Source: Nitrospiraceae bacterium (lineage in GTDB: Bacteria > Nitrospirota > Thermodesulfovibrionia > UBA6902). Taken from it: a DNA stretch of 64,000 nucleotides. Under the pieces are notes generated by a model. The model had not been told where the DNA came from, ran no database searches, and was given only the letters and a program-made list of their open reading frames with translations. The DNA lies in contig QZJG01000060.1 of NCBI GenBank assembly GCA_003599275.1, forward strand, positions 24,854 through 88,853, given 5' to 3'. This document shows positions 16,017 to 62,034 of this stretch, piece after piece. Made by a program: the position numbers and the translations under genes. Each line of letters starts with the position of its first letter. Position 1 is the stretch's first letter.

Positions 16017-17408
16017 TTAGCCCGATATTATAAGCCTTAAAAAATTTTTCGTCTTGTCCGTTGCCTTAAATCTTTCATCAGCCCTGTACCCTGCTATCCA
16101 GACTATATCATTTCCCGACAGCACTATGGGGACACTGTCCCGCTCATCTCTGGGGACCTTCTCGTCCACAAAAAAGTCCTGGAGCTTCTTCCTCCTGCCG
16201 AACCCGGCAGGATAAAAGCAGTCGCCTTCTTGCCGCGACCTTATGGTAAGAGGACAGTGTATTTTATCTGCGTCAATAACAACATCGGATTTCCCGTCTC
16301 CATAATCCTCTGCATTGTCCGCCAAAGATGCCTTAATTACGATTCCCGCCTCTTTTAAAGCAACCTCTCCGGGGACATGGATGCTGTGAGCGCCTGTCTT
16401 TACGGGAGGGGCCGACGTCAGTTTTAAAGTAGAATACGACTTGACAACTCTTATGTCCTTCGGCAGGTAAATCCTGTCGCCCGAGGCGCCTGTCTTTATG
16501 AGATCGATGATGTCCTCAATATGAACGAAGCCTATGCCTCTCAGTCCTTCAGTTGCATTGAGAGCCCTCCTGAGAACGCGCCTCAGGAGCGGTTTCTCCA
16601 TGGTCACCAACGGGGAAAGGAAAAGCTCTATCGTGTCCATGCTCTTTCTGCTTATCAGCCTCATGAGGGTCTTTGTTACGATAATTTCGAGATACTCGTC
16701 TTCCTCCCTGAGGATGTCCATCGTGCGGCAGATGTTTTGAATCAGGGCCGGGTTTTTCTTACTTAGTTCAGGGATGACACTCAGCCTTATCCAGTTTCTG
16801 AAATAGTCTTTCTTAAGGTTGGATGAATCCATAACGTAAGGCAATTCGTAATTCTTGATTCGTAATTCGTGATGCGCAAGAAAATCTTCGATTTCTTTTC
16901 TCTCAACCTCAATAAGAGGTCTGATTATCCTGCCTCTCACAGGAGGAATTCCTGAAAGTCCCTTTCTGCCCGCGCCTCTTAAAAGCATCATTAGAAGGGT
17001 CTCTGCCTGATCGCTGGCGGTATGGCCGAGGGCGATCTTCGCTGCGTTTATCTTTTTTGCGACCTCATCAAACACCCCGTATCTTAATTCTCTCGCGGCC
17101 TCCTGCCGGTTCAATCTTCTGTCCTTTGCGTGTCCTCGGACATCCACCTGTTCATAGAGGAAATTGATCCCGAGCGCATCGCAAAATTCTTTGCAGAAGG
17201 CCTTCTCTCCCTCGACCTCTTCGGGCCTTAATCCGTGATCGACATATACGGCGTGAAGCGAAAGATTGAAATCCTTTTTGAGTTTGTCTAAAATAACCGC
17301 AAGACAAACTGAGTCAGGGCCTCCGGAAAGCCCGACAAGAACACAGTCACCTTCAGAAAGCATAGTGTATCTGTTGATTGTTTCTTTGACCTTTTTCAGG
17401 AGTTCCAT
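16017..17408 (-). CDS. tilS: tRNA(Ile)-lysidine synthetase
   Basis: VGLSGGPDS, ALGHTASDQAET, DSSN, C-terminal KKLQDFFVDEKVP. Confidence 0.95.
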   Translation of the reverse strand: MELLKKVKETINRYTMLSEGDCVLVGLSGGPDSVCLAVILDKLKKDFNLSLHAVYVDHGLRPEEVEGEKAFCKEFCDALGINFLYEQVDVRGHAKDRRLNRQEAARELRYGVFDEVAKKINAAKIALGHTASDQAETLLMMLLRGAGRKGLSGIPPVRGRIIRPLIEVERKEIEDFLAHHELRIKNYELPYVMDSSNLKKDYFRNWIRLSVIPELSKKNPALIQNICRTMDILREEDEYLEIIVTKTLMRLISRKSMDTIELFLSPLVTMEKPLLRRVLRRALNATEGLRGIGFVHIEDIIDLIKTGASGDRIYLPKDIRVVKSYSTLKLTSAPPVKTGAHSIHVPGEVALKEAGIVIKASLADNAEDYGDGKSDVVIDADKIHCPLTIRSRQEGDCFYPAGFGRRKKLQDFFVDEKVPRDERDSVPIVLSGNDIVWIAGYRADERFKATDKTKNFLRLIISG

Positions 17409-17524
17409 AGCGGATTTAATTATAACTTAAAAAACTGGATTAACCACAGAGGTCACAGAGGATGAGCCAACATCCGGACTTCTTGTCCTCTTAACTTCTT
17501 TTTATTCTCTGTGGTAAAAAAATC

Positions 17525-18784
17525 ATGCACGATTTCATTTACAGAAAATCAGAACTTTACGCAGAGGATGTGCCTGTCAGGAAGATAGTGGAAAAAGCGG
17601 GCACGCCCCTGTACATTTACAGTTACAATACACTTGTCAGACATTACAGCGCTTACAAAGAGGCGTTTGACGGCTATCCCAATATTATCTGTTTTGCGCT
17701 TAAGGCGAATTCGAATCCGGCCCTGTTGAAAATCCTTGCCAAAGAAGGCAGCGGCGCGGATGTTGTCTCCGGCGGCGAGCTTTTCTTTGCATTGAAGGCC
17801 GGCATCCCCGCCAAAAATATTGTATATGCAGGAGTAGGAAAAACAGAGCAGGAAATCGAATATGCGCTGAAGTCCCGTATCCTCATGTTCAATATTGAGT
17901 CCTCCGATGAATTAGCGGCAATCGATAAAGTAGCGGGGAGACTGAAGGTAAAAGCGCCGATAGCCCTGAGAGTGAACCCGGACATAAGCGCATCGACCCA
18001 TCCATACATATCAACCGGACTGAAGAAACACAAATTCGGCATTCCGATTAATAAGGCGCTTGAATATTACAGCCTTGCAAACAGCCTTCGCAACGTCGAG
18101 GTCGTGGGTATCCACAAACACATTGGTTCTCAGATAACGAGGACCACCCCCTTTGTCGACGCCTTAAAAAAGGTTCTTGTGCTTGCGGACAGTCTCAAAT
18201 CGAGGGGCATAGAGATAAGATACCTTGACATGGGCGGCGGCCTCGGCATCCCATATAATAATGAAGAAGATCTGCCTAAGCCCGGGGACCTGGCAAAGGC
18301 GATCATGCCGCTCATAAAGCTCCATAACTTCACCCTGATCATCGAGCCCGGCAGGTCGATTGTCGGTAATGCAGGCATACTCGTTACCAAAGTTCTTTAT
18401 CTCAAAAAACATCTCAGGAAGGAGTTCGTCATCGTGGACGCGGGGATGAACGACCTCATAAGGCCGAGCCTGTACGATGCCTATCACCATATACAGCCAG
18501 TAAAAAAGAATGCCCGCCGGATTGTCTATGCCGATGTAGTCGGTCCGATATGCGAGTCGGGTGACTTCTTCGCCAAAGGCAGAAAGATGAACAGCCCCCG
18601 GCATGAGGATTTATTGGCCGTCATGAGCGCCGGCGCATACGGGTTCTCCATGAGCTCCAATTATAACGGAAGGAAGAAGGCAGCGGAGGTGCTGGTGAAG
18701 GGGAAGGAATTTTTTGTGGTCCGTGAAAGGGAAGAATATAAGGACCTGATAAAGGGAACAAGTATACCCGGGTTTTTGAAATGA
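17525..18784 (+). CDS. lysA: Diaminopimelate decarboxylase
   Basis: CFALKANSN, DVVSGGE, HIGSQI, EPGRSIV, VVGPICESGD, GAYG..MSSNYN. Confidence 0.97.
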   Translation: MHDFIYRKSELYAEDVPVRKIVEKAGTPLYIYSYNTLVRHYSAYKEAFDGYPNIICFALKANSNPALLKILAKEGSGADVVSGGELFFALKAGIPAKNIVYAGVGKTEQEIEYALKSRILMFNIESSDELAAIDKVAGRLKVKAPIALRVNPDISASTHPYISTGLKKHKFGIPINKALEYYSLANSLRNVEVVGIHKHIGSQITRTTPFVDALKKVLVLADSLKSRGIEIRYLDMGGGLGIPYNNEEDLPKPGDLAKAIMPLIKLHNFTLIIEPGRSIVGNAGILVTKVLYLKKHLRKEFVIVDAGMNDLIRPSLYDAYHHIQPVKKNARRIVYADVVGPICESGDFFAKGRKMNSPRHEDLLAVMSAGAYGFSMSSNYNGRKKAAEVLVKGKEFFVVREREEYKDLIKGTSIPGFLK

Positions 18785-19671
18785 AACTTCAATTCACAAA
18801 AATGCATTCCCTCGGCAATGATTTTGTGCTTATTGACGACAGGAGCGAAAAATTAGAGCAGCTCCCCCAGCTTGCAATAAAACTCTGTGACCGGAGATTC
18901 GGCATCGGCGCCGACCAGTTGCTGCTGATGCGGCATTCCCTGATAGCGGACTTTAACATGCGGATTTTCAATGCTGACGGCTCCGAGGTCGAGATGTGCG
19001 GCAACGGGATAAGGTGTCTGGGACAGTACATATGGCATGAAATACTGCGGAGCAGGACGACACAAAAAAACAAACTGTTCATTGACACCATTGCGATAGA
19101 GACCCTCGCCGGCATCAAGCACCTGAAAAAAACGGGCAGCCTCATAGAAGTTGACATGGGAGAGCCTGTGCTGGAGGCGGAGAAGATATCGGTTGAAACA
19201 GGGCAAAGGGCAAAGGGTGAAGGGCGAAGGGTAAAGAATGCAGAGCAGGGTGTCATCAATTATCCTTTAAAAATAAATGGCAAGATTTTTAAAATCACCT
19301 GCGTCTCGATGGGCAATCCTCACGCGGTGATCGTTGTCAAGGATGTCATGAAAGTCCCTTTGGAGAATTACGGGCCTGTTATTGAAAACAATAAAATCTT
19401 TCCAAAGAGGACCAATGTCGAATTCATACAGATATTGGACCGTCGCAATATTAAAATGCGGGTATGGGAGAGAGGGGCGGGGGAGACAATGGCCTGCGGC
19501 ACGGGCGCTTCTGCTTCCGCAGTTGCATCCGCCCTGCTCGGTTTGACCGGCAGAAAGGTCACAGTCCATCTTCCGGGCGGCAAACTGCAAATCGACTGGC
19601 CGGCAAAAGACAATCATGTTTTTATGACAGGTGATGCCGTGAAGGTCTTTGACGGAATTATTGAATTGTAA
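18781..19671 (+). CDS. dapF: Diaminopimelate epimerase
   Basis: FTKMHSLGNDF, EMCGNGIRC, SMGNPH, ERGAGETMACGTGA. Confidence 0.96.
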   Translation: MKLQFTKMHSLGNDFVLIDDRSEKLEQLPQLAIKLCDRRFGIGADQLLLMRHSLIADFNMRIFNADGSEVEMCGNGIRCLGQYIWHEILRSRTTQKNKLFIDTIAIETLAGIKHLKKTGSLIEVDMGEPVLEAEKISVETGQRAKGEGRRVKNAEQGVINYPLKINGKIFKITCVSMGNPHAVIVVKDVMKVPLENYGPVIENNKIFPKRTNVEFIQILDRRNIKMRVWERGAGETMACGTGASASAVASALLGLTGRKVTVHLPGGKLQIDWPAKDNHVFMTGDAVKVFDGIIEL

Positions 19672-19689
19672 ATTTCAAATTTAAAATTT

Positions 19690-19869
19690 ATGAAGATTAA
19701 ATGCCCGACCTGTAAAAAATGGACTGAATGGAAGGACAACCCCTTCAGGCCGTTCTGCTCCGAGAGGTGCAAACTTATAGACCTCGGGGCATGGGCATCG
19801 GATGAATATAAGATTGAAGGCAGGCCTGAAGATGAGGCTGGTCCGATGCCTTCGGAAAAGGAGAACTGA
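19690..19869 (+). CDS. yacG: DNA gyrase inhibitor YacG (59 aa zinc-binding protein)
   Basis: Not in the ORF track. Manual translation: [10 protein letters not shown]...[24 protein letters not shown]. Confidence 0.92.
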
Positions 19870-19870
19870 A

Positions 19871-20674
19871 ATGCTTAACATGATCGTATCAGGCGCAACG
19901 GGGAGAATGGGAAGCCGTATTATCGCGCTTTCGAGGGAAGTCGAAAAAATAAAATTGTCCGGCGCATTGGAGAGCAAAAACCACAAAGACCTGGGAAAAG
20001 ACATCGGGGAAGTAATCGGCATAGGGACGACCGGCGTCAGGATTGCCGGCGACATCAACAATATCACTGAAAAGTCGGACGTGCTCATTGATTTTTCATC
20101 ACCATCCGCAACGATAGAATGTCTTAAGTCTCTTTCCGGCAAACCCATGCCCGTAGTCATAGGCACAACGGGTTTCAGCAGGGATGAACTGGATTTTGTA
20201 AGCTTGTACGCCCAGAAAGTCCCATGTGTCCTTGCCCCGAACATGAGCGTCGGGGTCAACCTCCTCCTGAAAGTATTAGCGGATATAGCAAAGGTCACAG
20301 GCGACGACTACGACGTTGAGATAGTCGAGGCACATCACAGGATGAAGAAGGACGCCCCATCCGGCACGGCCATGAAAATGGCCCAGGTCATCGCTGCCGC
20401 GCTTGACCGTAATCTGGAAGAGACCGCCGTATATGCAAGGCACGGCCTCATAGGAGAAAGGGGCCGCAAAGAGATAGGCATCCAGACCATCCGGGCAGGC
20501 GATATCGTAGGAGAACACACCGTAATCTTCGGCACACCGGGTGAGAGGATCGAGATAACACACAAGGCCTCCAGCAGGGACACGTTTGCACGAGGCGCGT
20601 TAAAGGCCGCCCAGTGGGTATACAAACAGACCCCGGGACTTTATGACATGCAGGATGTGCTCGGACTGAAGTAA
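19871..20674 (+). CDS. dapB: 4-hydroxy-tetrahydrodipicolinate reductase
   Basis: GATGRMG, VIGTTG, EAHHRMKKDAPSGTA, RAGDIVGEH. Start set at ATG 19871. Confidence 0.96.
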   Translation: MLNMIVSGATGRMGSRIIALSREVEKIKLSGALESKNHKDLGKDIGEVIGIGTTGVRIAGDINNITEKSDVLIDFSSPSATIECLKSLSGKPMPVVIGTTGFSRDELDFVSLYAQKVPCVLAPNMSVGVNLLLKVLADIAKVTGDDYDVEIVEAHHRMKKDAPSGTAMKMAQVIAAALDRNLEETAVYARHGLIGERGRKEIGIQTIRAGDIVGEHTVIFGTPGERIEITHKASSRDTFARGALKAAQWVYKQTPGLYDMQDVLGLK

Positions 20675-20751
20675 AGTCCGGAAAATCTCTCCCGGTCCAT
20701 TCCGGACATTTGACGGCTGCTCATCTCCATTTCGATGCTATAATTTTTATT

Positions 20752-22479
20752 ATGCGCAATCAGGAAGTCGCCAGGATCTTCAACGACATCGCCGACATTC
20801 TCGAAATCAAAGGTGACAATCCCTTCAGGATACGAGCGTACAGGCGTGCTGCGCAAAATGTCGATGGGCTTGCAAAGGACGTCGCGGAAATATCCCCGGA
20901 AGAATTGCAGAAAATCCCCGGCATCGGCGCTGATCTCGCAGGAAAGGTCCATGAGTATGTCGAGACAGGCGGCATGAAATTCTACGATGAATTGAAGAAA
21001 GAAGTGCCTTCAGGCCTTGTTAATATCCTCTCCGTGCCGGGGCTTGGTCCGAAGACTGCCAGGCTTCTCTATGACAAACTTCACATCAAGGATGTGGACG
21101 ACCTTGAAAAATACGCGAAGGAAGGAAAGCTGAAAGGCCTTCCCGGCATTCAGGCAAAGACGGAAGAGAACATCCTCAAGGGGATTGCGATGATCAGGCG
21201 GCACACGGGACGTTTCCCCCTGGGACGCGTACTGCCTGTTGCCGAAGGGATTTTAGAAAAGCTGAAAGAAAAAGCCCCGGTCATCAAACTGAGCATCGCC
21301 GGAAGCCTCAGGCGGTGGAAGGAAACGATACAGGACATCGACATACTTGCAACTTCAAAAGACCCTCATAAAGTGATGGATGTGTTCGTCCATCTGCCAC
21401 AGGTGAAAGATGTGATCATGAAGGGGCCGACGAAATCAAGCATTATCACCACTGAAGGGACACAGGTGGACTTGAGGGTTGTGGAGGAGGCATCGTTCGG
21501 CGCGGCGCTGGCTTATTTCACAGGGAGCAAAGAGCATAACATTCGGCTCCGTGAAATGGCTGTAAAAAAAGGACTGAAGATAAATGAGTACGGCATCTTC
21601 GACGTCAAGACGGACAGGAAGCTTGGCGGAGAGCATGAGGAGGATGTTTATCAAATACTTGGTATGCCGTACATCCCTCCTGAAATCCGTGAGGACACCG
21701 GAGAAATTGAGGCGGCCCTTGAAGGCAATCTGCCGAAGCTTATCGGGATGAAAGACATAAAAGGCGACCTCCATGTGCACACAAAATCCAGTGACGGAAG
21801 CCATGACATACAGGAGCTCATTGAAGCCGCGAAGGCGAGGGGCTACGAATATATTGCGATCACCGACCATTCAAAGGGGCTCGGCGTGGCCGGGGGCTTA
21901 AGCGTCGAGCAGGTCCTTGAGCAGAACAGGAAGATACAGGCGCTGAATAAAAAATTAAGAGGCTTCAAACTCCTTTCCGGCACCGAGATGGATATTAAAA
22001 GTGACGGCTCACCGGACTTTCCCGACGATGTCTTAAAACGGCTCGATATAGTCATCGCCTCCATACATTCCGGTTTCAGGCAGTCGAAAGAACAGATAAC
22101 AAAGAGGATTGTGTCTGCTATGAAAAACCCGTATGTCTCCATTATCGCCCATCCGACCGGAAGGCTTATCGGGGAGCGCGACGCTTATGAAGTTGACCTC
22201 GAAGAGGTCCTGAAGGCGGCAAAAGAGACCGGCACTGCGATAGAGATAAACGCCTATCCGCTGAGACTTGACTTGAGTGACATGTATGTCAGGAAGGCAA
22301 AAGAAATGGGGGTCGCGCTTGCAATCAATACCGATACCCATGTGATTTATCAATTTGATTTTATGACCTACGGCATCGGCACCGCACGAAGGGGCTGGGC
22401 CGGGAAGAAGGATGTCCTGAATACGCTGGGCTATAATGCGTTGATGAAGAGGCTGAAAGGCAAAGCCGGCTTCCCATAA
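20752..22479 (+). CDS. polX: DNA polymerase X family / PHP 3'-5' exonuclease
   Basis: MRNQEVARIF.DIADILE, GSLRRWKET..DIDIL, VDLRVV, YFTGSKEHN, PHP motifs DLHVHT and TDHS. Start set at ATG 20752. Confidence 0.93.
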   Translation: MRNQEVARIFNDIADILEIKGDNPFRIRAYRRAAQNVDGLAKDVAEISPEELQKIPGIGADLAGKVHEYVETGGMKFYDELKKEVPSGLVNILSVPGLGPKTARLLYDKLHIKDVDDLEKYAKEGKLKGLPGIQAKTEENILKGIAMIRRHTGRFPLGRVLPVAEGILEKLKEKAPVIKLSIAGSLRRWKETIQDIDILATSKDPHKVMDVFVHLPQVKDVIMKGPTKSSIITTEGTQVDLRVVEEASFGAALAYFTGSKEHNIRLREMAVKKGLKINEYGIFDVKTDRKLGGEHEEDVYQILGMPYIPPEIREDTGEIEAALEGNLPKLIGMKDIKGDLHVHTKSSDGSHDIQELIEAAKARGYEYIAITDHSKGLGVAGGLSVEQVLEQNRKIQALNKKLRGFKLLSGTEMDIKSDGSPDFPDDVLKRLDIVIASIHSGFRQSKEQITKRIVSAMKNPYVSIIAHPTGRLIGERDAYEVDLEEVLKAAKETGTAIEINAYPLRLDLSDMYVRKAKEMGVALAINTDTHVIYQFDFMTYGIGTARRGWAGKKDVLNTLGYNALMKRLKGKAGFP

Positions 22480-22506
22480 TTTCCCCTAAGAGTTAAAATA
22501 GCCGAT

Positions 22507-23454: not shown

Positions 23455-23477
23455 CCTCTGTGGTTTAAATTATTTAT

Positions 23478-24872: not shown

Positions 24873-24882
24873 GAGAATTTAA

Positions 24883-33671: not shown

Positions 33672-33769
33672 AGTAGTCAGTAGTCAGTAGTCAGTAGTTA
33701 GTAGTAAAAAGGAACGAAAAGGTGGAATCCTGCTATCCTTAACTACCAACTACTTGCTACTTACTACCT
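33672..33769. repeat. Inverted pair of heptamer tandem arrays: (AGTAGTC)x3-AGTAGTT-AGTAGTA ... ACTACCA-ACTACTT-GCTACTT-ACTACCT
   Basis: Fills most of the dnaK-dnaJ intergenic space. Confidence 0.85.
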
Positions 33770-41495: not shown

Positions 41496-43604
41496 ATGTA
41501 CACTGTACACTCTGATAAACGCAAATCGGGCATTTCGCTGATCGGCGATCTGCCGTGGGGCACCCACTTCTGTCAGTTCTATCAGACGAAGCAGGACCTG
41601 TTGGATATACTTGTCCCTTATTTCAGGGCGGGACTGGAGAACAACGAGTTTTGCGTATGGGTCACTTCAGAGCCTCTAAGCGTTGAGGATGCGAAAAGGG
41701 CCTTAAAGAAAGCCGTGCCTCATTTTGAGAAATACGCAAAGAAAGGGCAGATGCAGTTGGTCCCTTCCACCCGCTGTCATAACACAAAGGGGCAAGGGCC
41801 AAGTGGCAAGTCGATACGATCGGAGATTCGTGCCGAACTCGATTCCGAGGGTCAAAGGAACAGTGCAATACTCACAATGCTTGACAAGGCTGTATTGGGC
41901 GGCTTTGAAGGTCTCAGGCTTGCATGCAGCGCCTTCCCTGCAAAAGAGGGCGGCAAGGTCTTCGCATGTGGGGCCGATGCAATAGTCGGACATAATGCCC
42001 TTGCGGTCTTTGCGTATCCCCGCGACAGGTTCGATGCTATATCCTTAATGGAAGTGGTGAAGGACCACCGGTTTGCGCTCGTTCGGAATGCCGGCAGGTG
42101 GGAGGTCATCGAGAGCTCCGAGGCGCGGACAGTTAAAGACGCCTTAAAAAGGAGCGAGGAAAAGCTTCGTTCCCTTTTCAGCAACATGTCTGAAGGGTTC
42201 GCCTATCACAGGATAGTGCTGGATGAAAAAGGCAAGCCCTGCGATTATGTCTTTCTCGAAGTCAACGAATCATTCGGGAGACTGACCGGCTTTGAAGGGA
42301 AAGACATCATCGGCAAAAAGGTAACGGAAGCCCTTCCGGGAATAGAGAAAGACCCCGCTGACTTGATAGGGAAATACGGGAAGGTCGCTATGACCGGAGA
42401 GCCGATACAGTTTGAGAGTTATTCGGGACCTCTGAATAAATGGTTTTCGATCTCGGCCTTCAGCCCGCACAAGGGTTATTTCGCCGTGACGTTCAGCGAC
42501 ATCACGGAGCGCAAGTGTGCGGAGCAGGAGCTTGTCCGTGCCAAAGAGGAATGGGAGCGCACCTTCGACAGCGTGCCTGATTTGATCGCCATCCTTGATA
42601 ATCAGCACCGGATAGTCCGGGTCAACAAGGCGATGGCAGAACGGCTGGGACATGACGCTGAAGAATGCGTTGGCATGCCCTGTTACAGGTACGTGCATGG
42701 ATTGTCGTCTCCGCCGGGATGTTGTCCCCATTCAGTCACAATGAAGGACGGGTGTCAGCATATCGCCGAGCTGCACGAGGACCGGCTTGGGGGAGACTTT
42801 CTTGTGAGCACGACCCCTCTTTTTGATGAGCGTGGACAACTGATCGGCTCCGTGCACGTGGCGAGGGACATCACGGAGCGCAAAAAGGCTGAAGAGCAGT
42901 TGAAAATGACCATGACCGACCTGGAGCGCTCAAACAAAGAGCTGGAGCAGTTTGCGTATATCTCTTCCCATGACCTGCAGGAGCCCCTGCGCACAATCTC
43001 AAATTATGTGCAGCTTATCGGGAGGCGGTATAAGAACAGGCTTGACAGCGACGCGGATGAATTCATTGATTATATAGTGGGCGGGGCCGTCCATATGCAG
43101 ACCCTCCTGAATGACCTTTTGACTTATTCCCGCGTGGGCTCGGGGCAAAAGTCTTTCAGTCTGACGGATCTCAATTCCGTTCTCGAAAGGGCCGTGGCCA
43201 ATCTCAAAGATGCAATCGACCGGAACAATGCTGAAATAAACTGGACGGGCTTACCTTCGGTGCATGCCGATGGAACCCGGATGGCGCAGTTGTTCCAGAA
43301 TCTGGTAAGCAATGCCGTCAAGTTCCGGGGCAGTGATCTGCCCCGCGTACAAATAACCGCGGAGCATAAAGATAAAGAATGGGTGGTCCGGGTCAGCGAT
43401 AACGGCATCGGGATAGACCCGAAATATTTCGACAGGATTTTCCTGATATTCAAGCGCCTTCATTCAAGGGGGGAATACGAGGGCTCCGGGATAGGACTCG
43501 CTATCTGCAAAAAGATAGTTGAGACACACGGAGGGCGCATATGGGTCGAATCAGGGCCGGGCAAAGGAACGACGTTTTATTTCACGATACCGGAGAAAAG
43601 ATAA
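41496..43604 (+). CDS. MEDS-PAS-PAS histidine kinase (phytochrome-like HisKA)
   Basis: Degenerate MEDS, two PAS domains, [41 protein letters not shown]. Confidence 0.9.
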
Positions 43605-48512: not shown

Positions 48513-48516
48513 GTCC

Positions 48517-50427: not shown

Positions 50428-51961
50428 ACGTAGTCCCCTGCCCCGGGCCGCTGTCTGCAAGCAGATAACCTTTGTGCTCCTTGATGATCCCAAATACGAT
50501 GGATAATCCGAGCCCTGTCCCTAATCCGGCCTTTTTTGTAGTAAAGAACGGGTCGAACATCTTGTCTTTTGTGTCCTGGTCCATGCCGGTCCCGGTGTCG
50601 GTGATGCTGATTTCCGCGTAATCGGCGGCAGCCGGTCTTTCATTACTCTCAACTCTTAACTCATGACTCCGGATTTTTCTTGTCCGTATGGTCAAGGTCC
50701 CGCCATCCGGCATTGCGTCCCTTGCATTTGTTGCAAGGTTCATCAGGACCTGCTCTATTTGTCCGGGGTCTGCCGTCACAATTAAATCCTCTCCCGCGGT
50801 CTCGACTGTAAATTCCATGTCTTCTTTCAGGAGCCTCCGCAATATCTCTTCCATATTGCGGATGAGGTCGTTGAGGTTTACGGCCTCGGGAAAGCTCATC
50901 CGTTTTCTTGTGTATGTGAGAAGGCCCTTTGTGAGGGCTTCTCCCTTGTCCGCAACAGACAATATCTGTCGCACGCAGTGTCCCGCAAATTCCTCGTCAT
51001 TATTTTTTTTCTGCAGGAGCTCTGCATAACCTATTATCGCGCCAAGTATGTTGTTGAAGTCGTGGGCAATGCCTCCCGCGAAGATGCCCATCGCCTCCAC
51101 TTTCCGGGTGTGCCTGAGCTGTTCTTCAATTATCTGTTTTTCCTCCTCCCTCTTTTTCAGGGATTCGGCCATGCCGTTAAATGCCTGCGCGAGCCTGCCT
51201 ATTTCATCGTCTCTTCCAGCGTATATCTTTTTGACCGAAGACCCGGCCCCCAGCGCCTTTACCTCCCCGGTCAGCCTTTTCAGCGGCCTTGTGGCCCCTT
51301 TTACCATGAAATAAGTGATGAGCCACGCGGGTATTATGAAGAACCCGAGCACTGTGAGGCTTTTGAACAATAGCTCTCTCAGATTCCTGTTCAGTATTTC
51401 CGTGGTGAGTACGGTCCGCACAAACCCTGTTACAATTTCTTTCTGAGGCGTTGGTCCCCTGTTTAAAAGCAGGTCCTCTTCGCCGGCATTATTCACGCGG
51501 GAAGTCACGGGAGCCCAGAATTCTATCCAGCCCTCTGTTTCTGAATAAAATGCCGGGCCGGACGCGCTGAGCATGTCCATCGTCTCCTTACTCATGTGCC
51601 GCAGGCCCACGGGACGCTTTTTACTGGCCGAGATCGCGGGGCTTTCTTCCGTCTTCAATTCCCTGCCGTCAACTGTAAATACCTGGACCAGTATCACTTC
51701 GTCATTTTGCAGGATCCCTCCGACGGGATATTTGAGCAGATCTTCGTTTTCCGCAAAGACGCCGAGCCTCGAATTATAGGCAAGCAGCCCCGACAGTTGT
51801 TCTCCTTCATCTATAAGGTGCTGTCTTAACAGTTGCCCCTGATTGTAGACCAGGAGTGCGGTGAAAGAGATATGGATGACTACGATGAGGCAGGTGAACA
51901 GGAGAAATATCTTTGCGCCGAAGCTTTCGCGGATGTATTTTATGAGTTTTAAATATGGCAT
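50387..51961 (-). CDS. Membrane sensor histidine kinase (HAMP-HisKA-HATPase)
   Basis: Two TMs, HAMP, AGGIAHDFNNIL, DTGTGM, FDPFFTTK..G.GTGLGL. Confidence 0.9.
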   Translation of the reverse strand: MPYLKLIKYIRESFGAKIFLLFTCLIVVIHISFTALLVYNQGQLLRQHLIDEGEQLSGLLAYNSRLGVFAENEDLLKYPVGGILQNDEVILVQVFTVDGRELKTEESPAISASKKRPVGLRHMSKETMDMLSASGPAFYSETEGWIEFWAPVTSRVNNAGEEDLLLNRGPTPQKEIVTGFVRTVLTTEILNRNLRELLFKSLTVLGFFIIPAWLITYFMVKGATRPLKRLTGEVKALGAGSSVKKIYAGRDDEIGRLAQAFNGMAESLKKREEEKQIIEEQLRHTRKVEAMGIFAGGIAHDFNNILGAIIGYAELLQKKNNDEEFAGHCVRQILSVADKGEALTKGLLTYTRKRMSFPEAVNLNDLIRNMEEILRRLLKEDMEFTVETAGEDLIVTADPGQIEQVLMNLATNARDAMPDGGTLTIRTRKIRSHELRVESNERPAAADYAEISITDTGTGMDQDTKDKMFDPFFTTKKAGLGTGLGLSIVFGIIKEHKGYLLADSGPGQGTTFSIFLPLRGPEGR

Positions 51962-51964
51962 GTT

Positions 51965-55066: not shown

Positions 55067-55078
55067 CCGTCTGTTTTC

Positions 55079-55681: not shown

Positions 55682-55706
55682 CATCCAATTACTACCTTAT
55701 TAATAT
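55678..55706 (+). promoter_or_regulatory. Putative sigma70 promoter of the precursor peptide (TTGACA-N17-TAATAT)
   Basis: Perfect -35 overlapping the MFS stop codon, 17-nt spacer. Confidence 0.55.
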
Positions 55707-55756
55707 AAGTAACCTGCCTTAGCAGGGGATCGGTATTTCCATAAAAGGAGGGAGCC

Positions 55757-55858
55757 ATGGAAAGAGAAGAGATCATAATTCTGGATGAAGGTATTGACTT
55801 GCGGGAGGTAGGGCCTGACGGCCCGTGTTGTTCTACTACAACCGCACCTATAAGATAG
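55757..55858 (+). CDS. RiPP precursor peptide, geopeptide-like (MEREEIIILDEGIDLREVGPDGPCCSTTTAPIR)
   Basis: Not in the ORF track. Strong RBS AGGAGGGAG; acidic leader I-I-L-D-E-G-I; CC core; directly upstream of a radical SAM/SPASM gene. Confidence 0.85.
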   Translation: MEREEIIILDEGIDLREVGPDGPCCSTTTAPIR

Positions 55859-55862
55859 TACG

Positions 55863-55894
55863 AAAGTGGGAGGGAGGAAGCTCTCTCCCACTTT
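55863..55894 (+). terminator. 14-bp hairpin (AAAGTGGGAGGGAG-GAAG-CTCTCTCCCACTTT) between precursor and maturase
   Basis: Read directly; one G-U pair, short U tract. Confidence 0.65.
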
Positions 55895-55915
55895 TAGCAG
55901 GTTTCTCCAAAAAAG

Positions 55916-57229
55916 ATGAAACTCTCCCGATACCTTAAAATCTACCCCTTCGACGAAAGACCCGGCTATCTCCTGCTTTACTCCACAAAAAAGTCATCAA
56001 AGATACTTCTCAGGGAGGAGACTTACGATTCAATAATCAACGGCACGCTGTCTCCTGAAAACGAGGCAACACTGTCGAGACTCGGGATGATCGTTTCAGA
56101 CCTTGAACTCGAAAGAAGGGAAGTCCTCGGCCTGATCGATGAGATCAATGCAAAGAATGCCAGGCTGAACCTGAGCGTTATCATGAACCTCGACTGCAAC
56201 TTCAACTGCGTGTACTGTTACGAAGGCGGCATGAAGGGCAAGTTCTATATGACCGATGAGACGGCGGGGCTCCTTCTTGATTTTGTTAAGGACCGGTTCA
56301 CTCCCGGCAAGAAAACCATACATATGGATTTTTACGGCGGAGAGCCGTTGCTGAGCGCAAACCTCATCAAATCCATCTCGATGGAGATGAAGTCTTTTGC
56401 AGAAAGCAGAGGCGCAAGATACACTTTCACTCTTGTTACCAACGGCTCTCTTTTAAAAAGGCGCATCGCGGAAGAGCTGACCTCGCTGGGACTTAAGGGA
56501 GTAAAGATGACCCTTGACGGCCCGCCTGAAATTCACAACTCCTGCCGTCCCTTTAAATCAGGCGCGGGCAGCTTTGACGCCATTGTCGAAAACATTAAAG
56601 AGACACATGATCTCCTGAAAATCGGCATAGGCGGCAATTACCGCAAAGATAACTTTGAAAAATTTCCGCTGCTGTTCGATTATCTCGAAAGGGAAGGGCT
56701 CACTCCCGGCAGGATACACGAATTGAAATTCGAGCCTGTAATGAACAGGCCCGTGGATGAAAACTCGCCTGATTATATGGACGGCCTCATGTCCGTAAAT
56801 GAGCCGTGGGTGATAAGCGCAGGCGCGTTTTTGAGGGGAGAAGTTTTGCGAAGGGGCTACGGTACTCCGAAGATCAACCCCTCGCCCTGTCAGGTTGAGA
56901 TTAATGACTCTTATGTAGTGAATTTCGACGGCGTCATCTATAAGTGTCCTGTCTTTATCGGAAAGAAGGGTTTTGAGACAGGAGACCTCCGGAACGGCGT
57001 TACGGATTACAGCGATTCGCACAGGCCCGGCATTTACAAAAATGATGAATGCGCTGAATGCGGGTATCTGCCGCTCTGCTTCGGCGGCTGCCGTTATATG
57101 TCGTATGTCAGAAACGGGAATGTAGAGAGCGTTGACTGCAAGAGACCTTACTTCGACGCCGTCCTTGAGACGATGATAAAACAGGACATAAAGTTTCTCT
57201 CCTCCCGGTCAACCAAATCCAGCGATTAA
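55916..57229 (+). CDS. Radical SAM/SPASM peptide maturase (geopeptide-maturase-like)
   Basis: MKLSRYLKIYP...GYLLLYST N-terminal extension (possible RRE), CNFNCVYC, FYGGEPLL, SPASM cysteines PC...YKC...CAECGYLPLCFGGC...DC. Confidence 0.9.
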   Translation: MKLSRYLKIYPFDERPGYLLLYSTKKSSKILLREETYDSIINGTLSPENEATLSRLGMIVSDLELERREVLGLIDEINAKNARLNLSVIMNLDCNFNCVYCYEGGMKGKFYMTDETAGLLLDFVKDRFTPGKKTIHMDFYGGEPLLSANLIKSISMEMKSFAESRGARYTFTLVTNGSLLKRRIAEELTSLGLKGVKMTLDGPPEIHNSCRPFKSGAGSFDAIVENIKETHDLLKIGIGGNYRKDNFEKFPLLFDYLEREGLTPGRIHELKFEPVMNRPVDENSPDYMDGLMSVNEPWVISAGAFLRGEVLRRGYGTPKINPSPCQVEINDSYVVNFDGVIYKCPVFIGKKGFETGDLRNGVTDYSDSHRPGIYKNDECAECGYLPLCFGGCRYMSYVRNGNVESVDCKRPYFDAVLETMIKQDIKFLSSRSTKSSD

Positions 57230-57244
57230 TTGCACCCCTCCATT

Positions 57245-57319
57245 GTCATTGCGAGGTCGATACGACCGTGGCAATCTACATATAAAAAGGCAGGATTGCT
57301 TCGCTTCACCCGCAATGAC
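57245..57319. repeat. Palindromic element GTCATTGCGAG...GGCAATCT...GATTGCTTCGC...GCAATGAC
   Basis: Same family as 32336-32478. Confidence 0.8.
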
Positions 57320-57347
57320 AATCTTTATCTCTAAATTTGAGATCAGC

Positions 57348-57375
57348 TTGATTTAATACGACAGTTACTTATAAT
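57348..57375 (+). promoter_or_regulatory. Putative sigma70 promoter (TTGATT-N16-TATAAT)
   Basis: Perfect -10; 26 nt upstream of ATG 57402. Confidence 0.5.
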
Positions 57376-57401
57376 AAACGTATTGATCTTTCTTGCTGCA
57401 T

Positions 57402-57977
57402 ATGGAAAAAATCCTCATCATTGACGACGACAGTGAGATGCAGTCAGTCCTTTCGGACATCCTGAAATCGGAAGGATACGAACCTCTCGTTTCAGGCGAC
57501 GGAAGGAAGGCCCTCAGGTATATCACGGACCTTTCCCCTGCCCTTGTTCTGCTGGATATAAGACTTCCCGGCATGGACGGTATGAAGGTGTTAGAGAAAA
57601 TCAGGCAGACGGACAAGAGACTTATCGTAATCATGCTCACCGGATACGGGGACATCAAGGACGCGGTCCAGGCGATAAAGATGGGCGCGTTCGACTATAT
57701 CACAAAGCCCTTCAGGAACCAGGAGATAGTATCGACCGTAAGAGACGCCCTTCTGGCCCGGCTCAGTTGTGACGCCCACGCGGTTACGCCACGGGAGAAA
57801 GAGGTGCTTGCATGGCTCAAGGAGGGGAAAAGCTCACGGGACATTTCTTTGATCCTTGGTATCAGCGACAGGACAGTAAATTTTCATATCAATAATGTCA
57901 TGCATAAACTTAACGCGGTAAGCAGGATGCATGCTGTAGCCATAGCGGTCGAAAAGGCAATAATAGATACGAGATAA
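57402..57977 (+). CDS. Response regulator, REC + LuxR-type HTH
   Basis: IIDDD, LLDIRLPGMDG, GAFDYITKPF; TPREKEVLAWLKEGKSS.DIS.ILGISDRTVNFH. Confidence 0.9.
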   Translation: MEKILIIDDDSEMQSVLSDILKSEGYEPLVSGDGRKALRYITDLSPALVLLDIRLPGMDGMKVLEKIRQTDKRLIVIMLTGYGDIKDAVQAIKMGAFDYITKPFRNQEIVSTVRDALLARLSCDAHAVTPREKEVLAWLKEGKSSRDISLILGISDRTVNFHINNVMHKLNAVSRMHAVAIAVEKAIIDTR

Positions 57978-57985
57978 AACAGGGG

Positions 57986-59236
57986 TCAAACAAGCAGGAC
58001 CTGAAGCACCTGATCGATCCTCTTCAAATTTCCCAGGACCTTTTCGCAAGCATCGCGCCCGACTTTGTGCGCCCTCGTCAGGGCAACAAATCCTGCAAGT
58101 CTGCTTTCGATTTCATCAACGGCCCCTTTTACATCGAGATCGTCGTTCATTTTCCGCTCAAATGCATTTGTAAGCTTATCGGGCGTCGCGGTTGTATCTG
58201 CTCCGCCTTTGGTCTTCCGGCAATTGCGGATCTCCTGCGTCATACTTCTGATCGAATCGATCCGTCCGGCGGCTTCCCTCAACCTGTCTCCGGTAAGGTC
58301 CAGTTTTTTCCTGTAGTGCTCCCGGACAAGGAAAAAGCGGACATGTTCAGCGCTAAACCCCTGCTTCAAAAGCTCCTGGAGATAGACTATATTGCCCTTG
58401 CTTTTGGACATCTTCGCGCCGTTGACGATCACATGCTCGCCGTGGAGCCAGTAGTGGGCAAACTCCCTTCCAAGGAGCGAGTCCATAATCGCCAGGGTAT
58501 AGTCATGGTGCCGGTAAAGATTGTCCACGCCCCCGCAGCAGATATCGATTTCGCAGCCGAGGTGTTTGGTGATCATGGCCGCGTCCTGGATGTTCCATGC
58601 TGGCCTGCCCCGACCAATGGCCGTGTCCCATGAAAAGCCTTCATTTCCCCTGCTCTTATCGTCGTGCCACAGAATGAAATCTCCCAGGTTCCAGCGCATG
58701 CCGGTGTAGGTGTCTCTCCGAAAGCGTCTTTTCTCTTTGGGCCAGCGGCCCATATCGAGGCCGAAGAGCCTGCCGAAGCCCTTGAATTTCAGGGGATCAA
58801 AGAATACATCGCCTTTATGCCTGTAAGCGTAACCCTTCTCTATCAGGCGTTCGATGAGATGGACCGCCTGGTCTACGCTTGTGGAAGATCTGGCGATATG
58901 CGGCGGAAGTTTTATTTTTAATGCTGCGGCATCAGTCATAAATTGTTCGGCATTGGGGGTGATAAGTTTTTCACGGGTCAGATTCTTTTCCCGTGCTTTG
59001 ACGATGGCCTTGTCCTCGACGTCGGTAAAATTGATAAGGCGCTGGACGTTGTATCCCAGATATTCCAGGTAACGCTGCAGGACGTCTTCGTAAAGGAAAG
59101 AACGGTAGTTTCCCACGTGGGGTCTTGCATAGATGGAAGGGCCGCATGTAAACATCTTTACCTCTTTGTCCCTGCGCGGCTTAAAGAGCTCTTTTTTTCC
59201 GGTAAGAGTGTTATAAAGATAAAGACTGTTTCTCAA
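57986..59236 (-). CDS. Cysteinyl-tRNA synthetase-like protein with altered active site and no anticodon-binding domain
   Basis: YNTLT..KE.F, CGPSIY, PHVGN, TDVEDK, DFILW and KMSKSKGN are present. GRPGWHIECSAM is replaced by GRPAWNIQDAAM and PHHENE by RHHDYT. The protein ends after the DALR helices (416 aa). Confidence 0.8.
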   Translation of the reverse strand: MRNSLYLYNTLTGKKELFKPRRDKEVKMFTCGPSIYARPHVGNYRSFLYEDVLQRYLEYLGYNVQRLINFTDVEDKAIVKAREKNLTREKLITPNAEQFMTDAAALKIKLPPHIARSSTSVDQAVHLIERLIEKGYAYRHKGDVFFDPLKFKGFGRLFGLDMGRWPKEKRRFRRDTYTGMRWNLGDFILWHDDKSRGNEGFSWDTAIGRGRPAWNIQDAAMITKHLGCEIDICCGGVDNLYRHHDYTLAIMDSLLGREFAHYWLHGEHVIVNGAKMSKSKGNIVYLQELLKQGFSAEHVRFFLVREHYRKKLDLTGDRLREAAGRIDSIRSMTQEIRNCRKTKGGADTTATPDKLTNAFERKMNDDLDVKGAVDEIESRLAGFVALTRAHKVGRDACEKVLGNLKRIDQVLQVLLV

Positions 59237-60048
59237 GCGCGCCTCCTGTTCATATAAATAAGATATTCCACATTCCCTTTGGGTCCTTTGATCGGGGACG
59301 GGGTCAGCCCCCTGACTTCAAGCCCCATTTCCTCCGATCCGCTCTTTATTGCTTCAACGACCTCAAGACGTTTGTCTTCGTCTCTGACCACTCCTTTGCC
59401 CACGTCTTTTTTCCCGACTTCAAACTGTGGCTTGATGAGGGCGATTATTTCGCCCTGCGGCGCGAGGAATTCCAGGACCTTAGGGAGGACCTTCAGGAGC
59501 GAAATGAATGATACGTCAATTGTTGCAAAATCAATGTTGCGATTGAGTAAGTCTTTTAATTTTTCAACTCTTGACTCCTGACTCTTGACTCCTGACTTTT
59601 CTTCTGCCCTCTGCCCCCCAATAATTTCCTCAAGATAACGTATATTCGTTTTCTCTAACAAAATAACGCGCGGGTCGTTTCTCAGACGCCAGTCCAATTG
59701 ACCGTAGCCGACGTCGATTGCGTAAACTTTTTTCGCACCGCGCTGCAGGAGGCAGTCAGTGAAGCCGCCCGTTGAAGCTCCGACGTCCATAGCGATTTTG
59801 TCTTTAACATCTATATCGAAAGTATTCAGCGCATGTTCAAGCTTGAGTCCGCCCCGGCTGACAAAGGGCATTTTGTTTTCTATTGCCAATGTATTGTCGG
59901 GGGCCATCAGCGCGCCTGCCTTGTCGGCAACAATCCCGTTTACAAGGACATTGCCTTCCATTATCAGGGCCTTTGCCTTTTCCCTGCTTTCGACAAGACC
60001 TTTGTCGAAGAGCAGTTTGTCGAGACGGATTTTTTTCACGGAAGACAT
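59233..60048 (-). CDS. tlyA: TlyA-family rRNA methyltransferase
   Basis: S4 domain RLDKLL..KGL.ESREKA, FVSRGGLKL, DVGASTGGFTDCLLQ, DVSFISL, LIKPQFE, GPKGNVEY. Confidence 0.93.
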   Translation of the reverse strand: MSSVKKIRLDKLLFDKGLVESREKAKALIMEGNVLVNGIVADKAGALMAPDNTLAIENKMPFVSRGGLKLEHALNTFDIDVKDKIAMDVGASTGGFTDCLLQRGAKKVYAIDVGYGQLDWRLRNDPRVILLEKTNIRYLEEIIGGQRAEEKSGVKSQESRVEKLKDLLNRNIDFATIDVSFISLLKVLPKVLEFLAPQGEIIALIKPQFEVGKKDVGKGVVRDEDKRLEVVEAIKSGSEEMGLEVRGLTPSPIKGPKGNVEYLIYMNRRRA

Positions 60049-60105
60049 AGAGACATTATAATTGCATAAAACGCGAATATAAAGGGGGACGTCCGGAGCT
60101 CCTGT

Positions 60106-62034
60106 TTATCTGCGGAAATCTGCGTAATCCGTGGATTTCTTCATCAGCGCCGTCGCTTCTCTTGCGATACCTTCTGCGTCGATCCCGAGTTTTTTTCTCA
60201 GCAGATTTTGCGGCCCCTGTTCTATGAACCTGTCGGGAAGACCCAGGAGTTTTATTTTCAATCCTTCAATGCCTGATTGAGCAAGCTCTTCCAGCACTGC
60301 GCTCCCGAAGCCGCCTGAGACGGTATTTTCTTCAACAGTAAGAACGCATTTGGTATTTCCTGCGAGGCGGAAAATCAATTCCGTATCCAACGGTTTTACA
60401 AAACGCGCATTGACCACGCAGGCGTTGAGGCCCGCATCTGCAAGAAGCTGAGCGGCATTGACAGCGGGGGCGACCGTATTCCCGATCGCGATGATGAGTA
60501 TGTCGTCGCCTTCTCTCATGACCTCAGCCTTTCCTGCGGGGATGTTTTCCAATTCAACGTTCTCCGGACTTTCAATTGCCGTTCCCCTCGGATATCTTAT
60601 CGCGGAGGCGCCGTCAAGGGACAGCGCTGTTTTCAGCATACACTTGAGCTCATGACCGTCTTTCGGGGCCATGACGGTCAGATTCGGAATGTGTCTGAGG
60701 TAAGACAGGTCGAAGGTCCCGTTGTGCGTAGGACCGTCGTCGCCGACTATTCCGCTCCTGTCGATTGCGAACACAACCGGTAAATTTTGCAGGCATACGT
60801 CATGGATGATTTCATCATAAGACCTCTGCAGAAAGGTGGAATAAATGGCCACGACGGGTCTCAGTCCACGGGCGGCGAGTCCCGCCGCGAAGGTGACCGC
60901 ATGAGGCTCGGCTATGCCTACGTCATAAAATCTCTTCGGGAAATTATTTACAAATTCCGTAAGCCCGGTGCCCTCGGTCATTGCAGCGGTTATGGCGACA
61001 ATACGCCTGTCCTCTCTTGCAAGCTTCGCAAGACAGTTCCCGAAAATTTCGCTGTATGATTTTTTGCCTGAGGAATGCTGCTCGCCTGTTTCTATATCGA
61101 AAGGCCCGACGCCGTGAAATATCCCCGGGCTTTTCTCTGCCGGTGCATATCCTTTCCCTTTTCTGGTAATGGTATGTATCAAAACCGGTCCGGGGAACTC
61201 CCTGAAAGTTTTAAGGGTCTCTATAAGTGAATCTATCCTGTGGCCGTCTACGGGACCGACATATTCAAACCCGAGCTCTTCAAATAAAAGCCCCGGGACA
61301 ATGAGGCCCTTTACCGTGTCTTCCGCCTTTTGCGCGATCTTGAGGACCGGCTCGCCGAAAGTCGGTATACGCCCAAGCAGGGATTTTGTTTCTTTTTTAA
61401 ATTTCGTATACAGGTCGCCCATCATTATCCTGCGGAGGTACGCGGAGAGCGCCCCTACATTGGGAGAGATCGACATCTCGTTATCATTGAGTATCACGAT
61501 CAGGTCTTTCTTTAAATGTCCTGCGTGGTTTAATCCCTCAAACGCAAGCCCTGCGGTCATGGCGCCGTCGCCGATTACGGCTATTACCTTATTAGCGGGC
61601 AGGTGTGGGGTGTCAGGGGTTTGCGGTTTGAGATTTCTGATAATATCTCTTGCTTCGAGTATCCCGAGCGCGGCAGATATTGAAGTGGAACTGTGGCCGG
61701 TGCCGAAGGCGTCATGCGGGCTCTCCGTTATTTTGGGAAAGCCTGAAATACCGCCATACTGCCTGATGGTCGGGAATGCTTTTAATCTTCCGGTCAAAAG
61801 TTTGTGCGCGTAAGACTGGTGCCCCACATCCCAGATTATTTTGTCATCGGGGGAATTGAAGACATAATGCAGCGCGACAGTGAGGTCCACGGTCCCGAGG
61901 TTCGATGCGAGATGTCCGCCGTTGGTCGCAACCGTCCCGATTATTAAATCCCTCAATTCCTCTGCAAGGTCTTTCAGTTCAGCAATTGAAAGACCTTTGA
62001 GGTCCTGGGGTGAATTTATTTTTTCTATAAACAT
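60106..62034 (-). CDS. dxs: 1-deoxy-D-xylulose-5-phosphate synthase
   Basis: GGHLASNLG, WDVGHQSY.HK, GHSSTSIS, GDGAMTAG, NDNEMSIS, DVGIAEPHA, DGPTH. Confidence 0.97.
   Translation of the reverse strand: MFIEKINSPQDLKGLSIAELKDLAEELRDLIIGTVATNGGHLASNLGTVDLTVALHYVFNSPDDKIIWDVGHQSYAHKLLTGRLKAFPTIRQYGGISGFPKITESPHDAFGTGHSSTSISAALGILEARDIIRNLKPQTPDTPHLPANKVIAVIGDGAMTAGLAFEGLNHAGHLKKDLIVILNDNEMSISPNVGALSAYLRRIMMGDLYTKFKKETKSLLGRIPTFGEPVLKIAQKAEDTVKGLIVPGLLFEELGFEYVGPVDGHRIDSLIETLKTFREFPGPVLIHTITRKGKGYAPAEKSPGIFHGVGPFDIETGEQHSSGKKSYSEIFGNCLAKLAREDRRIVAITAAMTEGTGLTEFVNNFPKRFYDVGIAEPHAVTFAAGLAARGLRPVVAIYSTFLQRSYDEIIHDVCLQNLPVVFAIDRSGIVGDDGPTHNGTFDLSYLRHIPNLTVMAPKDGHELKCMLKTALSLDGASAIRYPRGTAIESPENVELENIPAGKAEVMREGDDILIIAIGNTVAPAVNAAQLLADAGLNACVVNARFVKPLDTELIFRLAGNTKCVLTVEENTVSGGFGSAVLEELAQSGIEGLKIKLLGLPDRFIEQGPQNLLRKKLGIDAEGIAREATALMKKSTDYADFRR

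Follow-up and report, generated by a model that had tools for sequence, protein, structure and literature searches.

Cyanobacterial genomes reportedly contain arrays of tandemly repeated heptanucleotides, the short tandemly repeated repetitive (STRR) sequences ascribed to Mazel et al. 1990, and the small dispersed repeats (SDRs) of Nostoc are said, after Elhai et al. 2008, to be 21-27 nt long, to have conserved hairpins and to lie embedded in heptamer arrays. The Rickettsia palindromic elements ascribed to Ogata et al. 2000 are reportedly selfish, sit in frame in housekeeping genes and are translated there as surface segments. Here we describe heptamer arrays that lie in frame inside core enzymes of an uncultured member of Nitrospirota (Thermodesulfovibrionia), whose genome comprises 3.05 Mb in 74 contigs, with 47.6% GC and an estimated completeness of 88.6%. 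The window, by which we mean the whole stretch of 64,000 nt that was analysed (C1:24854-88853, contig QZJG01000060.1 of assembly GCA_003599275.1), contains six such sites, in tilS, dapF, a histidine kinase gene, tlyA, dxs and larC.

Classical intervening sequences (IVS) are located in helix 25 or 45 of 23S rRNA and are excised by RNase III. In Coxiella burnetii, the 23S rRNA IVS forms a stem of 28 bp whose loop holds an S23p open reading frame (ORF), and GACAGAT heptamer repeats occur in the 5' region of this IVS, in numbers that vary between strains (PMC4990558). According to the account of Mrazek et al. (2007) given in PMC4679880, heptanucleotides are the commonest class of long simple sequence repeats (SSRs) with units of 5-11 nt in many bacteria, a preference for which slippage of a polymerase with a footprint of 7 nt has been put forward as the reason, and the long heptanucleotide SSRs are described as mainly intergenic. 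MacGregor (2015) reported TAACTGA repeats in marine Beggiatoaceae, Cyanobacteria and Bacteroidetes and proposed a translational role for them; their orientation within ORFs is set by stop codons, and the copies within ORFs are mostly found at protein ends (PMC4679880). Elements of four GGACCGG units occur within and between genes of Geobacter metallireducens (PMC2700814), and the GGGNATC repeats of Xanthomonas and Nostoc, which also prefer four units, are under-represented in coding DNA (PMC4692102).

Heptamer arrays in the window and in the genome

A first-pass annotation of the window, made from the sequence alone, had listed 7-nt repeats of different spelling in the six genes named above. 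We located repeats with Tandem Repeats Finder (TRF) and by direct reading of the sequence, and identified the genes with NCBIfam. All six arrays are present, their hosts are TilS, DapF, a CckA-like histidine kinase, TlyA, DXS and LarC, and all six ORFs are open and intact. TRF reported period-7 arrays at positions 10610-10631, 16844-16873, 19200-19236, 33672-33705, 33749-33767, 41787-41810 and 59567-59597 of the window; the arrays in the kinase and in dxs are degenerate and fall below its threshold, but they are visible by direct reading.

To obtain a chance baseline, TRF was run both on the whole genome and on its third-order Markov shuffle. Period 7 yielded 364 arrays in the real genome versus 63 in the shuffle, and its multiples 14 and 21 gave 93 versus 10 and 27 versus 1, respectively; the corresponding counts were 56 versus 15 for period 6 and 116 versus 79 for period 8. 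A strict detector that demands at least 3 net copies found 101 tracts of period 7 genome-wide, and only 5, 2, 3 and 0 tracts of periods 5, 6, 8 and 9, so the scan for 7-nt periodicity suggested by the first-pass annotation gave a clear positive answer. The signal is real and is not ordinary microsatellite noise. The six sites are members of a genome-wide population of heptanucleotide modules, amounting to about 170 strict tracts or about 400 TRF arrays, and this population belongs to the known class of STRR arrays or bacterial heptanucleotide long SSRs, here in an unusual place, in frame inside core enzymes.

Of 170 strict tracts, 119 lie inside ORFs, 19 overlap the end of an ORF and 32 are intergenic, and 251 of 398 TRF arrays are inside ORFs. 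Since our ORF model is crude (90.8% coding), the share of arrays located in ORFs (~63-70%) is only approximate, and an excess of arrays at N-termini may partly reflect upstream DNA. With 32 of the 170 tracts in the small non-coding remainder, intergenic DNA is enriched about 2-3-fold for arrays, yet the majority of them are genic. The length of tracts in ORFs peaks at 31 nt (26 tracts, compared with 14 of 30 nt and 12 of 32 nt), i.e. about 4.4 units; tract length modulo 3 gave no clean signal in ORFs, because chance matches blur the tract ends. One strand is rich in purines (72% on average), and on this strand 71 of the 170 tracts start with AG, versus 30 expected at random phase, while a further 25 start with AAG. 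The commonest tract ends are AGA, AGT and AAG, and from these starts and ends the module can be written as (AGNNNNN)4AG(N). A link of the AG register to primase (pppAG) is a matter of speculation.

The register is fixed within a family (AGAACAC, AGTGACA and AGGGTCA are examples) despite unrelated flanks, and all 170 tracts are built of only 72 canonical units. Some imperfect modules recur in identical form at unlinked positions; AGAACAA-AGAACAA-AGAGCAA-AGAACAC-AGA, for example, is found at C8:35188 and C19:16475. Single-linkage clustering of the units produced one giant cluster, which is uninformative because heptamers drawn at random would likewise merge at such a density. The arrays themselves are clustered along the genome: 52 adjacent pairs are at most 500 nt apart, versus 4.6 expected. 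The densest cluster, located outside the window, has 22 arrays in 10 kb of the same genome (G000, C5:69297-79297) among genes of cobalamin synthesis and cobalt transport (cbiQ, cbiM, cbiB, cbiC and cobB), together with an S23p gene that lies between inverted arrays.

The genome contains 29 inverted array pairs, many of them with loops of 4-45 nt. One of these is the hairpin between dnaK and dnaJ (33672-33767), whose inverted arms, AGTAGTC x4.9 and ACTACTT x2.7, enclose a loop of 43 nt and which has a predicted folding energy of -14.5 kcal/mol (z -2.6). The genes enclosed by inverted pairs with long gaps are ordinary ones such as cbiQ and cbiM, with no further copies of S23p among them. A weak GCTGAAA x2.9 array is also present at 2199-2219 of the window, within an ORF of the Cas4 family (PF01930; 1624-2313).

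Variable loops of core enzymes

It had been proposed in the first-pass annotation that the repeats were inserted into tolerant loops, where they create new peptide segments in essential enzymes, and that alignment to orthologues should reveal this. We therefore aligned each host gene with its orthologues from 30-40 relatives. The composite array of tlyA (59565-59616, minus strand) reads GGGCAGA x2 and then AGTCAGG/AGTCAAG x4 in the coding direction (the first part being the TCTGCCC x2 that by direct reading adjoins the array) and encodes GQRAEEKSGVKSQESRVE. In the alignment, residues 142-165 have no counterpart in the majority of relatives, six congeners among them, and at this point other relatives show inserts of 4-70 residues, made of other heptamers (AGTCAGA, GGGGCAA) and in some cases containing nested small elements. 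In dapF, the array at 19200-19236 (plus strand) consists of AGGGCAA x5 and encodes GQRAKGEGRRVK; the loop between IPV and INYPLK, in which it lies, varies from 3 to about 30 residues across relatives and is built in different genomes from AGGGCAA, AGTCAGA, AGTCAAA with TCACCCG, AACTCAA, GAGTTCA with CGCATCA, and others. The nearest public dapF loci come from groundwater metagenome-assembled genomes (MAGs) of Nitrospirae/Thermodesulfovibrionia.

The tilS array (16844-16873, minus strand; CACGAAT/TACGAAT x4) encodes HELRIKNYEL. About eight relatives have no insert at this position, and the rest have four units of CCGTCAC, CTCTTCA, ACTCGTC, ACTCATC or others. In dxs, the array at 61602-61636 (minus strand; AAATCTC AAACCGC AAACCCC..., encoding LKPQTPDTPH) is immediately N-terminal to the GDG thiamine-diphosphate motif and is decayed, whereas same-genus relatives that have the insert carry clean AAATCTC x4-6; the insert is confined to a part of the genus and is absent from two congeners and from all more distant relatives. 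The histidine kinase array (50644-50671, minus strand) has also degenerated, to 3.5 units (GAGTCAT GAGTTAA GAGTTGA GAGT) that encode SHELRVES in the ATP-lid loop, the length of which varies across relatives, with clean GAGTTCA/GAGTTAA x4 at the same place. The larC site (10610-10631, minus strand; GTCAGAA GTCAAAA GTCAGAA in the coding direction, encoding QKSKVRR) is occupied in nearly every relative by an array of 4-5 units, the length of which is about constant, but the unit differs (GCGGTCA, AGTCAGA, GTCAGGG, AGTTCAA, GGGGCCA, CAGTTCA and others).

In comparison with solved structures of TlyA, DapF, TilS and DXS, the residues encoded by the repeats correspond to alignment gaps. An AlphaFold2 model of DapF made from 34 sequences has a mean predicted local distance difference test (pLDDT) score of 89, and residues 143-154, which are encoded by the array, are its sole stretch of at least three residues with pLDDT below 50. 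When set against orthologues and solved structures, every array proves to be inserted or to form a loop of variable length; the insert is missing, variable in length or re-spelled in relatives, and both the proposed insertions and the proposed new segments in tolerated loops find support. DapF has a second segment of low confidence at residues 91-100 (window 19042-19085; block pLDDT 56), also gapped with respect to the solved structures, whose coding DNA is A-rich and shows no heptamer periodicity.

Ten other ORFs with interior arrays, taken at random from the same genome, all encode core enzymes (HisC, CbiB, QueC, LolA, CbiC/X, glycerate kinase, PrmC, HemC, CobB and HisH). A further array of the window, of the AAGGGGC type (41787-41809, plus strand), lies in the gene of a MEDS-PAS histidine kinase and contains a nested dispersed element of 40 nt, GTCGATACGATCGGAGATTCGTGCCGAACTCGATTCCGAG (41810-41849, plus strand), throughout which the ORF stays open. 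The start of this ORF falls within a short palindromic repeat, TGTACAC x2 (41496-41511). The 40-nt element has eight copies in the genome, all eight embedded in arrays of the GGG(G/T)CAA type, and no significant hairpin was predicted for it in comparison with shuffled sequences (-6.5 kcal/mol, z -0.42). Another element, of about 63 nt (TCGGAGCGACCCTCAGTCGCAGACTCGACTCTACGAGCGGAGAC...), occurs in frame between AGTCAG units in the tlyA genes of two relatives, L007 (G033) and L020 (G029), as a single copy in one and twice in tandem in the other; no significant hairpin was predicted for it, and the fold of the 55-nt element in relatives' tlyA does not surpass that of shuffled sequences.

Small inserts of other kinds have been found in the same loops as the heptamer arrays. 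The larC array abuts a G-rich mini-hairpin module (CCCCCCTT..AAGGGGGG; CCCCCCTTACGTCCCCCCTTGATAAGGGGGG; 10631-10668, minus strand) read in frame as PLIKGGRKGG, and similar CCCCCC..GGGGGG modules are present in the dapF loops of L031 and L055. Hairpins that resemble repetitive extragenic palindromic (REP) sequences (GGGCGATTCGCAAATCGCCCC, GGGCGGGTCTCAAACCCGCCCCTAC) lie in frame in the tlyA or tilS loops of L005, L115, L119 and L122, and these loops hold heptamer arrays in other relatives. The tlyA and tilS loops appear to collect any small insert.

The stop codons of the units show what becomes of arrays in genes. Of the 32 intergenic arrays, 17 are built of units that contain stops on both strands, but this is true of only 11 of the 119 arrays in ORFs; among random genomic heptamers the share is 8.7%. 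Therefore, stop-rich units are made freely and genes keep only the compatible ones, i.e. the frame and the stop-free orientation are due to selection. In the first-pass annotation, a templated or enzymatic process was held to add 7-nt-periodic DNA to tolerant loops while keeping the frame. In-frame segments in such loops are indeed observed, but a generating process that respects the frame is not required by the data, and a blind process followed by selection explains them better, including the apparent aiming at loops. A templated or enzymatic writer is conceivable as such; ordinary slippage by three units is observed directly.

The turnover of arrays can be followed in two congeneric species, G005 and G008, whose genes are 88-90% identical in nucleotides. 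Their tlyA genes (89.4%) have one internal indel of 21 nt, AGTCAGAAGCCAGAAGTCAGA, which equals three units, their tilS arrays are identical but for one point change, and their kinase loops are wholly different although the flanks align. Arrays are therefore inherited, shift in frame-preserving steps of three units, and can be rewritten faster than the gene around them diverges. In the larC and tilS series, all four units have been re-spelled in concert at constant length. Slippage by one unit cannot achieve this in an essential ORF, because the intermediate would be frameshifted. Possible routes to such concerted re-spelling are a cycle from four units to one and back to four, taken 21 nt at a time, two successive switches of template, or the exchange of the array for another module.

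Distribution and origin of the arrays

For a survey of the phylum, we searched 301 genomes for four GTCAGNN units with at most one mismatch, using the reversed pattern as a control. Such arrays were found in 106 genomes, representing 61 of 121 genera, with the control near zero in most genomes, and whole families among the 301 genomes had none. In 45-100 kb sampled from each of 12 genomes, this proxy tracked the general density of period-7 tracts well: ten GTCAGNN-free genomes had 0-1 tract, versus 5.6 per 100 kb in the genome of the window, and the exception, G063, carries other units. In 55 kb of G079, a member of the same class (its contigs C1-C5, L223-L227), there are no period-7 but nine period-8 tracts and four S23p genes, and this genome may use a different favoured repeat period.

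The first-pass annotation had suggested that genes of four-helix-bundle/IVS proteins might be flanked by arrays, and a search with PF05635 agrees with this for S23p. Three of four full-length S23p genes in the window genome lie, within ~60 nt, between inverted heptamer arrays, with arms of the AGAACAA type on C5, of the AGGGTGT type on C42, and GAATTAC x12.7 facing GTAATTC x4.9 on C43. Twelve S23p loci from other genomes include four with arrays on both sides and three more with arrays on one side, against a background of about one array per 8 kb. The arm units on C5 and C42 belong to two of the most abundant dispersed families, and rotation of the arm unit on C43, GAATTAC, gives the tilS unit TACGAAT. 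S23p genes are also present in two clusters, on C5 and C42, that rank among the densest in arrays. Eighty genomes were picked solely by array count; 35 of the 37 array-rich ones have S23p, as do 20 of the 43 array-free ones (Fisher p = 2e-6), with a median of 6 versus 0 copies (genus-level Mann-Whitney p = 2.5e-7). S23p was nevertheless rejected as a necessary and sufficient factor, owing to exceptions in both directions, and the relationship is one of association only.

We consider it probable that the arrays are the product of slippage or template switching, combined with the copying of modules and with selection. During replication or repair, slipping strands or switched templates would give rise to arrays in a register of 7 nt and keep their units uniform, and complete modules may in addition be copied to new places, with the arms of IVS-like S23p elements as a possible source. 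Between genes, arrays often come as inverted pairs that form hairpins, some of them bracketing a gene for an S23p/IVS protein. Within genes, the survivors would be those whose coding strand has no stops, which preserve the frame and which lie in surface loops that tolerate them; their products would be disordered segments of 7-24 residues that most likely leave the enzyme unaffected (an assumption on our part).

Several observations weigh against this explanation. Slippage alone accounts neither for the four-unit mode and the AG register nor for the small reused repertoire and the patchy spread. Throughout the order an array is held at the same loop and all its units change spelling together, which is hard to achieve in an essential ORF, where intermediates changed by a single unit would frameshift. 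The case for copy-and-paste rests on few identical imperfect copies, and no mobility enzyme was identified. The link to S23p also has its exceptions, as G307, G195 and G271 show no arrays over 100 kb despite their 5-10 S23p genes, while G318 and G174 have arrays without S23p.

A stronger role of S23p is conceivable, though we regard it as rather unlikely: the modules would be the arm repeats of selfish IVS-like elements in which inverted arrays of about 4 heptamers enclose an S23p gene, a dedicated activity linked to these elements would write or copy them into new sites, genes included, and solo arrays would be half-elements or footprints. The bracketing of S23p genes, their numbers in array-rich genomes, the match of arm units to abundant families including the tilS unit, and the S23p genes in the dense clusters on C5 and C42 all fit this scenario, as do the 28-bp stem and the 5' heptamer repeats of the Coxiella IVS (PMC4990558); the fixed register and the identical imperfect copies fit copying. 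However, no catalytic activity of S23p is known and no target-site duplications have been demonstrated. The five exceptional genomes count against this scenario as well, contrasts within genera are mixed (g46 and g144 disagree, g109 agrees), and the association is partly shared with the general load of mobile elements, since reverse transcriptase (RT), the control mobile gene, is somewhat enriched as well. In its broadest and equally doubtful form, the scenario would make the four-unit modules the terminal repeats of widespread unrecognised selfish elements, with an S23p gene between inverted arms, of which the 23S rRNA IVS is a special case. An activity tied to these elements would copy or write the arms into new sites, so that they end up between genes and, once selection has acted, in loops of essential enzymes in Nitrospirota and other phyla. 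If true, this would provide the first function for S23p proteins and explain why bacteria favour 7-nt repeats.

It is improbable that the arrays are functional cis-elements kept by selection, be it as multimeric binding sites of a protein that binds single-stranded nucleic acid, in RNase III or translational control, or as phase-variation switches. One could invoke the constancy of loop position and length across the order under changing spelling, e.g. in larC, the preference for four units in other bacteria (PMC4692102, PMC2700814), the intergenic inverted pairs that form hairpins, e.g. between dnaK and dnaJ, and the translational role that MacGregor proposed for TAACTGA (PMC4679880). But a single binder is unlikely because 72 unit spellings coexist in one genome, relatives of the same genus without the tlyA and dxs inserts keep intact genes, and arrays decay (dxs, kinase). 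As in phase-variable SSRs, the unit is not a multiple of 3 and lies inside an ORF, but the hosts are housekeeping enzymes (tilS, dapF, dxs, tlyA, larC, hisC, hemC, prmC) and not surface, antigenic, restriction or other contingency genes, and the sole change in copy number seen between species, the frame-keeping 21 nt in G005 vs G008, spans three units.

Even less credible is an RT of the retron, diversity-generating retroelement (DGR) or telomerase-like kind that adds 7-nt repeats by reiterative copying of a short template. The kinship of S23p with Avd, an accessory protein of DGRs, was counted in favour of such an RT, along with the short reiterated repeats of fixed register and the somewhat higher frequency of RT in array-rich genomes (24 of 37 vs 12 of 43 array-free ones). 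However, RT matches at E <= 1e-8 are lacking in 13 of the 37 array-rich genomes, among them G170 (98% complete, 7 contigs, 48 GTCAGNN arrays), and the single match in the window genome is weak and located on a different contig. RT is therefore not required, and we rejected it as the necessary writer. Finally, fragmentation of the genome (74 contigs, 88.6% complete) might raise the suspicion of an assembly or binning artefact of MAGs, which can practically be dismissed: dozens of assemblies, produced independently in different studies, have arrays at orthologous sites, all host ORFs are open, and the arrays shared by close species show single point differences.

Slippage or template switching together with module copying and selection thus stays our preferred explanation, and the lineage offers the means to examine it. 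Neither the preference for 7 nt nor that for about four units has an accepted mechanism, and here hundreds of arrays in essential genes, of which only the frame-preserving events survive, constitute a natural experiment, with re-spelled orthologous loops in dozens of genomes and with sister genomes that do and do not have arrays for comparison. The physical and statistical tie to S23p/IVS elements concerns proteins whose function has been a puzzle for 30 years. In practical terms, species-specific loops of 7-24 residues encoded by repeats can mislead alignments, gene callers and frameshift detectors.

Comparison with described repeats

We found no published description of heptamer arrays located mostly inside core enzymes of Nitrospirota, of orthologous loops re-spelled across an order, or of S23p genes outside rRNA between heptamer arms. 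With published unit sequences taken in part from PMC4679880, the genome contains no exact x3 arrays of STRR1 (CCCCAGT), STRR2 (TTGGTCA), STRR3 (CAACAGT), TAACTGA, GGGAATC or GGACCGG, and identity with these unit families was rejected. The general features are nonetheless those of heptanucleotide SSRs and STRR sequences, namely units of 7 nt arranged head to tail in at least three copies, dispersed over the genome, with period 7 favoured and several families in one genome. In contrast to these repeats, which are described as mainly intergenic, about two thirds of the arrays reported here are in ORFs, in the interior of core enzymes, and the host belongs to Nitrospirota (Thermodesulfovibrionia).

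With the TAACTGA repeats they share short arrays (2-6 units in that case), a patchy spread, an orientation in ORFs set by stop codons, and in-ORF copies that are read as peptide. However, TAACTGA is one dominant unit found mostly just upstream of start codons, whereas here many units occupy interior loops and orthologous sites are re-spelled. The elements of Geobacter and of Xanthomonas/Nostoc likewise prefer about four units, and those of Geobacter also have copies in genes, but they are single G-rich families read as regulatory RNA or G-quadruplexes (G4), while the present genome has dozens of families, most of which are not G4-capable.

The nested 40-nt element resembles the Nostoc SDRs, as these are reported, in being always embedded in heptamer arrays (8 of 8 copies); it differs from their reported features in its length (40 nt, not 21-27 nt), in the lack of a significant predicted hairpin and in the phylum of its host. 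The S23p modules resemble the IVS of Coxiella, where an S23p ORF also lies between terminal inverted repeats able to form a stem, whose 28 bp equal 4 x 7. Unlike that IVS, they are outside rRNA, among ordinary protein genes, and the same repeat families also occur solo in protein genes. As is said of the Rickettsia palindromic elements, the arrays are DNA inserted in frame into housekeeping genes as extra segments, but those elements are reportedly palindromes of 100-150 nt, whereas the modules described here are tandem heptamers of about 30 nt.

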